DNA of 64,000 bases from Escherichia phage phiEC1: the sequence record KY608965.1; one strand, written 5' to 3'. How positions within the stretch are numbered: position 1 is the stretch's first letter; every line of letters starts with the position of its first letter. Below, in pieces: positions 2,265 through 40,887 of the stretch. The position numbers and the translations under genes are program-made. Under the pieces are notes generated by a model. It had not been told where the DNA came from and made no database searches. It was given only the letters and a program-made list of their open reading frames with translations.

Positions 2265-4587
<2,323 letters not shown>

Positions 4588-36317: not shown

Positions 36318-36441
36318 TTTAAATTCTCAATTCGAGATAATATTTAGTAGCCACGTTCGTCTGAATTTCACCTTCTTTCGACAAGTCTCTCAGTTGTAGG
36401 CTACCGCTTAGAAGAGTGTTCTCTTCATATAGTTATTTATA

Positions 36442-36831: not shown

Positions 36832-37140
36832 TTACATAAGAAGCAAACGTTCGACCGGAGTACCATCAACCGAAATTACTTTATCAAGGCGGAAAGAACG
36901 CCACTGACCTAACTTGGTATCGAATGCTCGAACTGATTCACGAGGTTCATAACGAACTTCTGTTGCTGGATTGTTATTGACATATTTGACTTCAAGTTCA
37001 TCGCGCGAAGCAAACATAGTGCGTACATCACCGTTAGCCTTTTCAAATACAACACAATGAACGCCTACAGACAGAATAGTTTTAATACGTTCACGAAGAA
37101 CCATAGTTTCTTGTTCAGTTAAAATCATATTATTCACCAC
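36832..37140 (-). CDS. Hypothetical protein (31.1-like)
   Basis: 102-aa ORF between cd and 31, overlapping cd stop. Confidence 0.6.
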   Translation of the reverse strand: MVNNMILTEQETMVLRERIKTILSVGVHCVVFEKANGDVRTMFASRDELEVKYVNNNPATEVRYEPRESVRAFDTKLGQWRSFRLDKVISVDGTPVERLLLM

Positions 37141-37711
37141 AAAAGTTTCGGATTTGTTCCCAATTCAGAGAACGAAGATTATTACGAGAGTACTGAATTA
37201 CTTCAATACCAGCTTGTTTTAGAATATCTGCCCAATTTTCAGGAGATCGGTCGTATAATTCTGCGTATACAACCTTTTTAATACCTGACTGCGTAATAGC
37301 TTTAGTGCAATCAGGACACGGAGAAAGCGTAGTATATAACGTAGCACCTTCAATAGAATTACCTTTACGAGCGGCAAACAAAATTGCATTCAATTCTGCA
37401 TGGATTTCATTATTAGCAGACCATGCACTATGAGCAGCTCGATGTTCTTTGGCTAAAACAAAATTATCTACCCGTCCAAATGCTGTAGTGCCTTCTTTAT
37501 GTCCAGCAACGATGACTGGGATTGGTTTATTCTTCAACCAACCATTTTCAGATGCATGTTCGCAACAGTTAACGCCACCTGCAGGTGAACCGTTATATCC
37601 AGTAGAGATAATGCGTCCATCTTTTTCAATGACGGCACCAACTTTCCATGAACAACATTTTGATTCTTGAGAAATCAGATATGCAATCTGAAGGTATGTG
37701 CTAGCTTTCAT
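37130..37711 (-). CDS. cd: dCMP deaminase
   Basis: 193 aa; zinc-binding HAE…PCPDC motifs; colinear with T4 Cd. Confidence 0.95.
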   Translation of the reverse strand: MKASTYLQIAYLISQESKCCSWKVGAVIEKDGRIISTGYNGSPAGGVNCCEHASENGWLKNKPIPVIVAGHKEGTTAFGRVDNFVLAKEHRAAHSAWSANNEIHAELNAILFAARKGNSIEGATLYTTLSPCPDCTKAITQSGIKKVVYAELYDRSPENWADILKQAGIEVIQYSRNNLRSLNWEQIRNFCGE

Positions 37712-38703
37712 TATTGAACCTTATTAATATAAGTTAACAGCTCTTTAGTTTGTTCCCAACTGATGCACGCATCGGTAACGGAAACGCCATAGGACATATT
37801 ATCAGAAATTTTTTGATTTCCTTCATGTAGGAACGATTCTATCATAATTCCTTTGACCAAATCATTAGCTGCTAAATTTTTACCAATACCAATTTGATTG
37901 CTATAATGCCCATCAGCGTTTGCATGGCTACAGTCAACCATTACATAATGATTCAGACCTACTGCCCTTGCTTTGTTAGAAGCTTCTTGAATATCAGAAG
38001 AATGATAGTTCGGGCCGTTGGTCCCGCCACGCAATACGATATGCGTATTCTGATTACCTTCAGCTTCAACAATGCCTACAGTACCATCGACGTCCATACC
38101 CATATACCGATGAGGCCAGGCGGCACTATACATCGCGTCTGTAGCTACTTTAATAGAACCATTGGTTGCGTTCTTGAAGCCTACGCACATCGGTAGACCT
38201 GAAGCAATTTCACGATGTGTCTGACTTTCAGTCGTACGGGCGCCAATAGCAACCCATGAGAAAATACCAGAAAGATACTTAATCGTGAATGGGTCTAATA
38301 CTTCAGTTGCTAATGGAAGTCCCATACGTAGAAGTTTACGACACAATGTTCGTGCAACTATAAGACCGTGGTTCATATCAAAACTTCCGTCAAGATATGG
38401 ATCATTTACAAGACCTTTCCAACCTACGGTAGTTCGAGGCTTTTCAAAATAAACGCGCATCACTAACAGAACATTAGGAAGACGAGTTTGAAGTTCAGCC
38501 AGACGTTTGCCGTATTCAACAGCAGCAATAGGGTCATGAATTGAACAAGGACCTACAACAATAAGTTTGCGTGGGTCTTCACCGTTCATAATCGAATTAA
38601 CTTGTTCGCGATGAGAAGCCACTTGTGATGCGTAAGCTTCCGACAAAGGAATAATCTCAGCCAGTTCTTTTGGAGAAATAAGTTTTCCGACGACAGGTAA
38701 CAT
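37711..38703 (-). CDS. 3-deoxy-D-arabino-heptulosonate-7-phosphate (DAHP) synthase, class I (AroG/F/H-like)
   Basis: 330 aa; LIVVGPCSIHDP, VMRVYFEKPRTTVGWKGL, IGARTTESQTHRE, GFKN, IVLRGG, SHAN, GVSVTDACISWE match E. coli AroG-type DAHP synthase blocks as recalled. Confidence 0.85.
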   Translation of the reverse strand: MLPVVGKLISPKELAEIIPLSEAYASQVASHREQVNSIMNGEDPRKLIVVGPCSIHDPIAAVEYGKRLAELQTRLPNVLLVMRVYFEKPRTTVGWKGLVNDPYLDGSFDMNHGLIVARTLCRKLLRMGLPLATEVLDPFTIKYLSGIFSWVAIGARTTESQTHREIASGLPMCVGFKNATNGSIKVATDAMYSAAWPHRYMGMDVDGTVGIVEAEGNQNTHIVLRGGTNGPNYHSSDIQEASNKARAVGLNHYVMVDCSHANADGHYSNQIGIGKNLAANDLVKGIMIESFLHEGNQKISDNMSYGVSVTDACISWEQTKELLTYINKVQ

Positions 38704-38823
38704 AACAATCCTTAGGAGATATAAACAGATTCTGATTCAACAATACCTTTAACCGGATTAGACAGGCTAAGTTGGTAGTGCTCAGATTTATGACCATTCT
38801 CGATAGTAATGAGATAGCTCTCA

Positions 38824-39060
38824 TTATAGTGTTCCATATACTCGAGTTGCTTCAACAAGACCATCACTGCCTAATTTAAGGCTAGTAATCTGGTCACCAT
38901 CTTTAGGATTAACGATTATGAGAAAAGAACGTGGAGATTCTTGAATAACTCGTAATGTTGCATCCTGGAAACGTTCAGACACTTTATTGATGAGTGCTTG
39001 AGCAAATTCTTTTACTTTAATCTGAAATTCGTGTACTGTAATTGGGGTTTCACTTAGCAT
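38824..39060 (-). CDS. Hypothetical early protein (cd.x-like)
   Basis: 78-aa ORF with SD GAGGAAA and upstream early promoter (GTTTAC…TACTAT at about 39090-39119). Confidence 0.55.
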   Translation of the reverse strand: MLSETPITVHEFQIKVKEFAQALINKVSERFQDATLRVIQESPRSFLIIVNPKDGDQITSLKLGSDGLVEATRVYGTL

Positions 39061-39121
39061 TTCGATTTCCTCATTGTGTTGGTAGAGTTATAGTATCACA
39101 ACTCCACCATGTTGTAAACCA

Positions 39122-39800: not shown

Positions 39801-39801
<1 letters not shown>
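39610..39801 (-). CDS. Hypothetical early protein (cd.x-like)
   Basis: 63-aa ORF directly downstream of pseT. Confidence 0.5.

Positions 39802-40887
<1,086 letters not shown>

Follow-up and report, generated by a model that had tools for sequence, protein, structure and literature searches.

A DAHP synthase with a remodelled allosteric site encoded between pseT and cd in Escherichia phage phiEC1

In AroG, Q151/Q152 and S180/S181 touch the main chain of the bound inhibitor and D155 stabilises the site (PMC9529685). P150L, S180F and F209A/S are published feedback-resistant variants of this enzyme, and in the aroG-fbr alleles, which also comprise D146N and Q151 variants, laboratory changes abolish or weaken inhibition by Phe/Tyr (PMC9529685). 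A feedback-insensitive DAHP synthase (DAHPS) is also known from a natural system: PhzC (PaeDAH7PS-PA1901, type IIB), encoded in the phenazine cluster and devoid of allosteric elements, serves a dedicated pathway (PMC6435475). DAHPS genes of phages have received passing mention at the level of annotation, for Klebsiella phage KLB31 (PMC11845039) and for phiC120 (PMC8022965), and no functional study of a phage DAHPS was found in our full-text literature searches. The laboratory reference phages T4 and RB69 lack the gene, which is probably why its role has gone untested. The gene itself is already known, being deposited and named in more than 200 phage genomes, and the gene call therefore adds nothing; what the present analysis contributes is the apparent remodelling of the regulatory site.

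Genomic setting and expression

The window analysed here is a stretch of 64,000 nucleotides of Escherichia phage phiEC1 (record KY608965.1), and the features of its pseT–cd region are listed in Table 1. The initial annotation had placed a DAHPS in the cd/pseT neighbourhood of a T-even phage. The neighbourhood was as described, and nrdAB, td and frd also lie near the gene; the backbone of the window is that of an RB69-like Mosigvirus and not of T4. As the initial annotation stated, T4 has no DAHPS gene: a 112-aa cd.1 lies there between cd.2 and cd. All motifs quoted from the ORF (LIVVGPCSIHDP, VMRVYFEKPRTTVGWKGL, IGARTTESQTHRE, GFKN and SHAN) were found in its translation. The ORF starts with ATG and cannot be extended N-terminally, because this is the first ATG/GTG/TTG codon past the upstream in-frame stop; a ribosome-binding site is annotated at the equivalent place in the record of phage Mizar. 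At the other end, the TAA stop shares one base with the ATG of cd (TAATG), making the two genes stop/start coupled, as had been proposed.

Table 1. Features of the DAHPS locus and its surroundings in the window
Feature	Coordinates	Strand	Remarks
cd, dCMP deaminase	37130..37711	(-)	Translationally coupled downstream neighbour of DAHPS
Downstream junction AATAATGAAAGCTAGCACAT	37696..37715	(-)	DAHPS stop overlapping cd start
Class I-alpha DAHP synthase CDS, 330 aa	37711..38703	(-)	Profile, fold and residue evidence
AAGGA ribosome-binding site	38709..38713	(-)	5 nt before DAHPS ATG
41-aa ORF	38712..38837	(-)	ATG at 38837; within the 1,113-bp segment
Upstream insertion junction TATAATGAGAGCTATCTCAT	38809..38828	(-)	Imperfect copy (17/20) of cd start region
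cd.2 homologue (DUF7320, phrog_1504)	38824..39060	(-)	First gene of putative early transcription unit
Sigma-70/T4-early-type promoter-like site	39090..39118	(-)	TTTACA-17-TACTAT with upstream TG
pseT, polynucleotide kinase/phosphatase	39801..40700	(-)	Upstream boundary of conserved slot

The promoter-like site aligns with the T4 early promoter Pe133295, which lies between cd.3 and cd.2. The late-promoter motif TATAAATA was found neither inside nor upstream of the unit, the nearest occurrence being at 36434-36441, downstream of gene 31, and a scan for intrinsic terminators gave none on the DAHPS strand. These signals suggest that DAHPS is probably transcribed early, together with cd, from the promoter upstream of cd.2.

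A segment of 1,113 bp in the window is absent from RB69 and mar005P1, and the two junction repeat copies are likewise 1,113 bp apart. The 41-aa ORF within this segment matched phrog_15876 (E=4e-32); a second, weak match was to the C-terminal half of Cd.2 family proteins (phrog_1504 positions 41-76 of 77, E=1.6e-5). Compared with individual Cd.2 proteins, it gave E=0.003 for that of Serratia phage X20, and similarity to that of Klebsiella phage EI was not supported. Weak as the match to Cd.2 is, the ORF is probably what remains of a second cd.2 allele that arrived with the cassette. An origin of the 41-51-aa upstream ORF as a remnant of T4 cd.1 was discarded, no similarity having been found.

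Family, fold and active site

The proposed assignment to the AroF/AroG/AroH-type class I enzymes agreed with Pfam, NCBIfam and PHROG matches. The search against PF00793 (DAHP_synth_1) that the initial annotation had recommended gave E=5.2e-75 and 252.3 bits (cutoff 25.5); this was the only Pfam match, and the type II DAH7PS profile (PF01474) was not matched. Among the NCBIfam models, TIGR00034 (aroFGH) was passed with 427.7 bits (cutoff 173.2) and NF009395 with 455.1 bits (cutoff 343), the isozyme-specific models for AroG (NF006723, 363.2 bits, cutoff 568) and AroH (NF009396, 386 bits, cutoff 463) were not passed, and no AroF-specific model was among the hits. Residues 1-330 aligned with profile positions 8-337 of the 341 in PHROG 5045 (E=3.2e-182), a phospho-2-dehydro-3-deoxyheptonate aldolase family in the category 'moron, auxiliary metabolic gene and host takeover', and the earlier description of the gene as an auxiliary metabolic gene thus holds. 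The best solved relative was E. coli AroF (6AGM, E=5e-105), with identities of 51.4% to AroF (6AGM/6AGL), 47.4% to AroG and 44.1% to AroH. The AF2 model (pLDDT 89.4, pTM 0.90) was matched by Foldseek to solved DAH7PS structures (4HSO, 1KFL, 5CKS and 1HFB), those of Neisseria and E. coli among them, with TM scores of 0.92-0.95. It contained a (beta/alpha)8 barrel with the I-alpha decorations, including helix 22-39 and hairpin strands 198-203 and 209-214, the N-terminal extension being ~9 residues shorter than in cellular enzymes; the beta6a/beta6b hairpin of E. coli AroF is kept. By family and fold, the ORF is a genuine class I-alpha DAHP synthase.

The metal ligands C53, H260, E289 and D311 (AroG Cys61/His268/Glu302/Asp326), whose inspection had also been recommended, are intact and showed no variation in any of the 25 phage-clade or 98 cellular sequences. 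The PEP residues R83, K88, G154-A155-R156, K177 and R225 (AroG R92, K97, G163-A164-R165, K186 and R234) and the erythrose-4-phosphate motif K88-P89-R90-T91 were likewise conserved in all 25 phage-clade sequences, and all of these elements are the same in E. coli AroF. The KPRT motif is specific to DAHPS. The phage enzyme is accordingly predicted to be catalytically competent, converting PEP and erythrose-4-phosphate to DAHP and Pi. The initial annotation had considered that the protein could act as a decoy; this is not supported, the catalytic residues being invariant throughout the phage clade. It is likewise extremely improbable that the protein is a pseudoenzyme devoid of catalysis, or a KDO8P synthase whose substrates are lipopolysaccharide precursors. 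PF00793 includes KDO8P synthases too, and lipopolysaccharide is loosely mentioned for the phiC120 homologue in the genome paper (PMC8022965), but the metal, PEP and erythrose-4-phosphate residues are all invariant, KPRT included, the score against the DAHPS equivalog TIGR00034 far exceeds its cutoff, identity to AroF is 51%, and no KDO8PS model was among the NCBIfam hits.

Phage clade and remodelled allosteric site

A DAHPS homologue is encoded in 212 phage records, and proteins 100% identical to that of the window are deposited in many Mosigvirus records under the names DAHPS, AroF or AroG. Among deposited Straboviridae, no fewer than five genera share the pseT-DAHPS-cd slot (Mosigvirus, Winklervirus, Bragavirus, Marfavirus and Kagamiyamavirus), which also occurs in two uncultured T4-like contigs. 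Deposited homologues in PHROG 5045 include those of Escherichia phages ATK47, APCEc01, LF82-41, Mizar and EcS1, Shigella phage Shf125875, Serratia phage X20, Klebsiella phage EI and Proteus phage PM2. They share both the slot and the remodelled pocket described below, and the copy in the window, 98-100% identical to Mosigvirus copies and 58-77% to those of other genera, is one of them, with no essential difference. In the survey of presence and absence that had been suggested, the gene was kept in 139 of the 142 records at least 95% identical over the region, T4 and RB69 being without it. The phage sequences were monophyletic in 200/200 neighbour-joining (NJ) bootstraps. Their GC3 tracks the composition of each carrier phage, and that of the DAHPS studied here is 0.30, vs. 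0.50-0.57 for E. coli aroF/G/H. A recent origin in the host was rejected in view of this phage-like GC3, the monophyly and a maximum identity of 52-55% to cellular proteins; the phage DAHPS form an old, phage-specific clade. DAHPS hits labelled 'Acinetobacter phage MD-2021a' were not accepted as phage genes, given their canonical pocket and their location beside cobS and cobT.

Inspection of the feedback-inhibitor site, also proposed at the outset, proved to be the informative check, the residues being systematically replaced in the phage clade. When 25 phage-clade sequences were compared with 98 cellular ones in an unbiased scan of all columns, six columns alone discriminated the two groups, and all six fall in segments forming the allosteric site. 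In AroG numbering the changes are P150I, Q151K, D155G, S180P, F209Y and T223A, at phage positions I141, K142, G146, P171, Y200 and A214. I141, K142, P171 and Y200 were fixed in 24-25 of the 25 phage-clade members, with the canonical residues present in 91-98 of the 98 cellular sequences; Q151 (98/98) and S180 (97/98), practically invariant in the related cellular enzymes, were both replaced in every phage sequence. The N-terminus was affected as well. Only 48-52 residues precede the catalytic Cys in the phage clade vs. 58-95 in the cellular sequences, the phage DAHPS lacks the first ~9 residues of E. coli AroF, and equivalents of AroG D6/D7 (AroF N7/N8) were absent in 25/25 phage-clade sequences. 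From the AroG-Phe structure 1KFL, we take Asp6/Asp7 to contribute to the allosteric site from the partner subunit. A deletion of five residues (AroF 290-294) further marked 21/25 phage and 0/98 cellular sequences.

Compared with the aroG-fbr alleles (PMC9529685), the phage enzyme is naturally substituted at 150, 151, 180 and 209, but the incoming residues are Ile, Lys, Pro and Tyr, where the laboratory alleles have Leu, Ala, Phe and Ala/Ser, and several changes are combined with an N-terminal truncation. D146 and the AroF-type P148 are retained, although mutations there likewise give resistance, and the Tyr-type Gly at AroG position 211, a feature of AroF, is also present. Conservation at the pocket positions exceeded that in the remainder of the sequence (mean entropy 0.14 vs. 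0.99, permutation P=1e-4). The substituted residues are thus not drifting, a pattern as compatible with a structural role or a new ligand as with a simple loss of regulation.

Remodelling of this pocket is not unique to phages. In an exhaustive representative search, 62 of 150 divergent type I-alpha representatives departed from the canonical residues at no fewer than three of these six sites, S180P among the recurring changes, and the pocket of Cobetia paralogues was also altered. Since non-canonical pockets are common in divergent cellular lineages, a remodelled pocket is by itself no phage-specific evidence.

Predicted regulation and role in infection

With the allosteric site rebuilt and the N-terminal residues missing, the phage enzyme is probably insensitive to feedback by aromatic amino acids, to judge from mutational data on other isozymes. 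In support, a second and separate phage lineage, the Aeromonas phage HJ05 clade, carries A150, H/S151, P180 and V209, whereas 105-110 of the 117 cellular sequences nearest to it have the canonical residues. The reading that we favour, at somewhat better than even confidence as a whole, is that of a catalytically competent, early-made and feedback-insensitive DAHPS sustaining shikimate flux. The active site is unaltered, the site through which Tyr, Phe or Trp switch off the isozymes of the host is rebuilt, and residues of the N-terminus that complete this site in the neighbouring subunit are missing. Transcribed probably early and jointly with cd, under the conserved early promoter that precedes cd.2, the enzyme would maintain carbon flux into the shikimate pathway once the phage has halted host gene expression. 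It may thereby supply Tyr/Phe/Trp and/or chorismate-derived cofactors to a phage proteome richer in aromatic residues than that of the host, to the presumed physiological benefit of the phage. PhzC offers the same concept of an extra DAHPS without aromatic allostery that supplies chorismate to a dedicated demand outside normal homeostasis (PMC6435475). The likeness is one of function and not of family: PhzC is a bacterial type II enzyme (PF01474) tied to a biosynthetic gene cluster and, unlike the phage DAHPS, lost its allostery through omitted helices and a new quaternary structure. Besides the retained D146, AroF-type P148 and hairpin, the conservation of the substituted pocket and the non-canonical pockets of other lineages, two further points count against the favoured reading. 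T4 and RB69 do well without the gene, and the argument from aromatic demand rests on small samples with a modest 1.25-fold difference, F+Y+W making up 9.4% (Tyr 3.9%) in the ORFs of the window vs. 7.6% (Tyr 2.6%) in a sample of 42 E. coli genes.

It is fairly unlikely, though the foremost rival, that allostery was re-tuned and that the rebuilt pocket (Ile141, Lys142, Gly146, Pro171, Tyr200 and Ala214) now accommodates another effector. This could be an anionic metabolite drawn by the new lysine, such as prephenate or chorismate, or a phage-relevant nucleotide, and shikimate entry would then be tied to a signal relevant to the phage. Within the clade, where identity between members is no more than 55-77%, the six positions hardly vary, the hairpin is kept together with most residues of the hydrophobic lining (L170, V212 and I166), and the Gln to Lys change gains charge rather than losing bulk. 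Yet the conservation could stem from a dimer-interface role of the same segments, neither sequence nor neighbourhood points to a candidate ligand, and the joint loss of three polar main-chain anchors (Q151, S180 and the N-terminal D6/D7) resembles abolished binding. A further proposal is that the protein is an ordinary Tyr-sensitive, AroF-like isozyme adding gene dosage, its substitutions being neutral clade markers. The closest characterised relative is indeed the Tyr-sensitive AroF, the Tyr-type Gly is present and the phage clade lies beside an AroF-containing group in the NJ tree; we nevertheless consider this unlikely, given that cellular residues as constant as Q151 and S180 are replaced in all phage sequences, that the N-terminal segment is gone and that in AroG P150L and S180F each abolish inhibition singly (PMC9529685). 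The purpose of the enzyme might also lie in the consumption of erythrose-4-phosphate and PEP rather than in aromatic products. Such a sink would exert a pull on the non-oxidative pentose-phosphate branch and thereby help to provide the pentoses needed to make nucleotides. Freed from regulation, the enzyme would do well in this capacity, and the conserved position beside cd and near nrdAB, td and frd would suit such a task. This idea is purely inferential and seems very unlikely to us: DAHP would build up or be processed by host enzymes anyway, and the pseT-cd slot is a known variable region, elsewhere holding unrelated small ORFs and homing endonucleases, so the position may be a historical accident.

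The remodelled site yields a concrete hypothesis, that of a natural feedback-resistant DAHPS, and such an enzyme could serve metabolic engineering. Mosigvirus phages are frequent in therapy and biocontrol collections, and a gene reprogramming host aromatic metabolism bears on phage performance under nutrient limitation. More speculatively, the pocket may be purpose-built, either fixed permanently in the active form through its own Lys/Pro/Tyr/Ile side chains or answering a non-aromatic effector, with aromatic or chorismate supply limiting T-even replication, a proposal that we regard as possible but doubtful. If it held, the gene would reveal such a limitation in natural hosts, the limiting need being Tyr/Phe, given a proteome rich in aromatic residues, or else pABA/folate or Trp, given demands peculiar to T-even phages. 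Under the same supposition, the parallel changes in the unrelated lineage of Aeromonas phage HJ05 would mean that phages have resorted to deregulated entry into the shikimate pathway more than once.

Enzyme identity and occurrence among phages

The DAHP synthase (DAHPS) ORF was recovered with the position, strand, and length of the initial annotation, and all five of the motifs quoted there were found in the translation. The proposed family was borne out by matches to Pfam DAHP_synth_1 (E=5e-75) and to the NCBIfam DAHPS equivalog TIGR00034 (427.7 bits vs. a cutoff of 173.2); the subfamily model NF009395 gave 455 bits (cutoff 343), while the protein scored below both the AroG- and AroH-specific models. 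The best solved relative was Tyr-sensitive Escherichia coli AroF (6AGM, E=5e-105), and identities to E. coli AroF, AroG, and AroH were 51.4, 47.4, and 44.1%, respectively. An AlphaFold2 model (pLDDT 89.4, pTM 0.90) matched solved type I-alpha DAH7PS structures with TM 0.92–0.95 and retained the beta6a/beta6b hairpin. The metal ligands (C53, H260, E289, and D311), PEP-binding residues, and KPRT erythrose-4-phosphate motif were complete and unchanged in all 25 related phage sequences (the phage clade), so a pseudoenzyme or decoy, the latter raised in the initial annotation, and a KDO8P synthase were rejected. The protein is predicted with high confidence to be an active enzyme. Its ATG, 5 nt after the ribosome-binding site AAGGA, is the first possible start codon past the upstream stop, and the short N-terminus is therefore real rather than a calling artefact. 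At the other end, the last base of the TAA is the first base of the ATG of cd (dCMP deaminase; TAATG), and the two genes are thus translationally coupled, as proposed.

Phage DAHPS genes are already known and widely annotated. Many deposited homologues carry the names DAHPS, AroF, or AroG, PHROG 5045 ('phospho-2-dehydro-3-deoxyheptonate aldolase'; category 'moron, auxiliary metabolic gene and host takeover') matches the window protein end to end (E=3e-182), and two genome papers contain brief references to one (PMC11845039, PMC8022965). A full-text literature search found no functional study of a phage DAHPS. By tblastn, homologues were present in 212 of 50,697 phage records, 139 of them at ≥95% identity and several 100% identical; T4, RB69, and mar005P1 lack the gene. 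Overall, the initial observation was confirmed and its interpretation supported; the new element is a hypothesis, specific and cheap to test, that feedback control has been lost or changed.

Genomic slot, age, and predicted expression

The window comes from a Mosigvirus (RB69-like) genome and includes the gene order pseT (polynucleotide kinase/phosphatase), cd.4-like, unnamed ORF, cd.3, cd.2, 41-aa ORF, DAHPS, cd, 31.1, and 31; a counterpart of T4 gene 31.2, which in T4 separates 31.1 from cd, is missing, and no tRNA genes were found in the window. T4 indeed lacks DAHPS, a 112-aa cd.1 occupying its cd.2–cd slot instead, and in RB69 and the marine isolate mar005P1 cd.2 is fused directly to cd. 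The pseT–DAHPS–cd slot is shared by Winklervirus X20, Bragavirus PM2, Marfavirus EI, and Kagamiyamavirus EcS1; in X20, a cd.1 homologue separates DAHPS from cd. Two uncultured T4-like contigs, which hold the most divergent clade members, also have this slot. In some genera, SegB-like and MobE-like homing endonuclease genes directly adjoin DAHPS and could spread the cassette between co-infecting T4-like phages. Many deposited relatives name the gp31.1 homologue (WYL_2/Sm-like SH3 barrel) 'tail fiber(s) protein', probably a propagated misannotation, since a weaker match, phrog_10657, bears that label.

Phage-clade sequences (319–343 aa) are 55–100% identical to the window protein and were recovered as a group in 200/200 neighbor-joining bootstraps, adjoining a group that contains enterobacterial AroF; the nearest cellular proteins reach only 52–55% identity. 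The GC3 of DAHPS (0.30) resembles that of adjoining phage genes, not that of E. coli aroF/G/H (0.50–0.57), and tracks each phage's own composition, genus by genus, and the gene is kept in 139 of the 142 records that match the window at ≥95% identity across the pseT–gene 31 region. A recent pick-up from a host was rejected on these grounds, and by these sequence measures DAHPS is an old, maintained phage gene.

A clean insertion of 1,113 bp sets the window apart from mar005P1, and an imperfect direct repeat of 20 nt, in which the start region of cd is duplicated (TATAATGAGAGCTATCTCAT and AATAATGAAAGCTAGCACAT), marks both ends of the insertion. The 41-aa ORF shows weak similarity to the C-terminal half of Cd.2 (phrog_1504 positions 41–76 of 77, E=1.6e-5; Serratia phage X20 Cd.2, BLASTP E=0.003; no match to Klebsiella phage EI Cd.2), which weakly suggests import from another T4-like phage with a cd.2–DAHPS arrangement. 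Repeat and ORF look like a recombination scar of such an import, or the repeats could instead have served as substrate for the loss of this segment in RB69 and mar005P1.

Base by base, the early-type promoter-like site aligns with the T4 stretch that bears the annotation of early promoter Pe133295, no late-promoter motif (TATAAATA) was found within or upstream of the DAHPS transcription unit, and a scan found no terminator on the DAHPS strand; DAHPS is therefore probably transcribed in the early or middle phase, together with cd. The whole window holds 18 copies of TATAAATA vs. 7.1 expected (0 of 100 shuffles reached 18), mostly on the + strand in structural-gene blocks, as expected of a T4-like phage.

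Features of the window and of related loci (L, loci in their own coordinates; P, single proteins)
Feature	Location	Strand	Remark
DAHPS CDS	37711..38703	-	330 aa, ATG start
41-aa ORF, phrog_15876	38712-38837	-	upstream end of cassette
Insertion junctions (repeat copies)	38809-38828 and 37696-37715	-	
Early-type promoter-like site	39118..39090	-	TTTACA-17-TACTAT, upstream TG; 5' of cd.2
TATAAATA nearest to DAHPS unit	36434-36441		downstream of gene 31
gp31.1 homologue	36832-37140	-	
Homing endonuclease genes	L009:981-1575, 3510-4048		Klebsiella phage EI
Homing endonuclease gene	L008:1106-1822		Proteus phage PM2
HJ05 DAHPS	L010:2899-4062 (OQ594355); also P0121-P0123		79-kb phage; unrelated lineage
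Faecal-contig DAHPS	L011:4782-5771 (MT837410)		

The feedback-inhibitor site and a proposed role

The phage clade was aligned with 98 related cellular sequences, among them the K-12 translations of E. coli AroG, AroF, and AroH, and a column was regarded as discriminating when fixed in at least 24 of the 25 phage sequences and occupied by one different residue in at least 90% of the cellular sequences. Of the 330 columns, only six qualified, all in segments building the Phe/Tyr site: I141, K142, G146, P171, Y200, and A214 of the window protein (pattern IKGPYA), corresponding to AroG P150, Q151, D155, S180, F209, and T223, respectively. Inspection of the inhibitor-site residues, as initially proposed, thus revealed six replacements with an unchanged active site. 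In AroG, P150L confers complete feedback resistance, S180F and F209A/S are also feedback-resistant, Q151/Q152 and S180/S181 touch the bound inhibitor's main chain, and a D155 salt bridge steadies the site (PMC9529685). Counterparts of AroG D6/D7 (AroF N7/N8) are missing from all 25 phage proteins, which have 48–52 residues before the catalytic Cys vs. 58–95 in the cellular set. In the AroG–Phe structure (1KFL), D6/D7 of the partner subunit's N-terminus bind the inhibitor's amino group. Because of the six replacements and the missing N-terminal residues, all polar anchors for an amino-acid inhibitor are, as judged from the alignment, gone, with the active site untouched.

The enzyme is thus probably insensitive to feedback by Tyr, Phe, and Trp. 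The replaced residues are not in decay: within the phage clade, pocket positions are much better conserved than the rest of the protein (entropy 0.14 vs. 0.99, P=1e-4). This accords with a role in structure or at the interface, with a pocket that fills itself, or with a new effector; the last would fit an allosteric site that has been re-tuned, a reading we consider unlikely but worth weighing. An ordinary Tyr-sensitive isozyme is improbable, a sink for erythrose-4-phosphate and PEP more doubtful still, and a decoy or KDO8P synthase hardly credible in view of the unchanged catalytic residues. We lean slightly toward an active, feedback-insensitive DAHPS that is made early to sustain shikimate carbon entry: carbon would still enter the pathway while the host would be unable to adjust its own aro genes, and a higher Tyr/Phe demand might be met during infection. 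This downstream benefit is the weakest step; aromatic residues account for 9.4% of window ORFs (Tyr 3.9%) vs. 7.6% (Tyr 2.6%) in a sample of 42 E. coli genes, which hints at such a demand. Alternative sinks would be chorismate-derived folate or tryptophan, both of which have classical T-even connections. Conceptually, the nearest precedent is PhzC; this unregulated DAH7PS supplies phenazine synthesis (PMC6435475), although it belongs to a different DAH7PS subclass.

Altered pockets in other lineages

An exhaustive search covered 1.84 billion cluster representatives, and the best 150 type I-alpha sequences were scored. Only 56 of these had the fully canonical six-residue pattern, at least three positions differed in 62, with S180P recurring, and IKGPYA occurred in none of the 150. 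Divergent type I-alpha lineages commonly have non-canonical pockets, so the phage remodelling is one variant in a family whose pocket often varies. Two top-scoring representatives, P0241 (799 aa) and P0243 (730 aa), contain two DAHPS-like stretches per polypeptide (tandem fusion).

Aeromonas phage HJ05 and three relatives from metagenomes form a second phage lineage, ~38% identical to the window protein, with a non-canonical pocket of A150, H/S151, P180, and V209 with complete catalytic residues; 105–110 of its 117 nearest cellular relatives are canonical, and the lineage may represent convergent deregulation. A locus labelled 'Acinetobacter phage MD-2021a' (L012; CAKLQH020000056), with a fully canonical pocket and aroF beside cobS, cobT, and ribazole phosphatase, is almost certainly mislabelled bacterial chromosomal DNA. 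An unverified, putatively viral 6.9-kb contig from human faeces ('Bacteriophage sp.') encodes a DAHPS whose N-terminus is short and whose pocket is heavily altered (Y146, W150, G151, and D180). DAHPS paralogues of Cobetia spp. (386 aa; P0126, P0130, P0133, and P0134) combine a long N-terminal extension with an altered pocket (Q146, A150, A151, G180, and H209), and may form a cellular subfamily that is unregulated or differently regulated.
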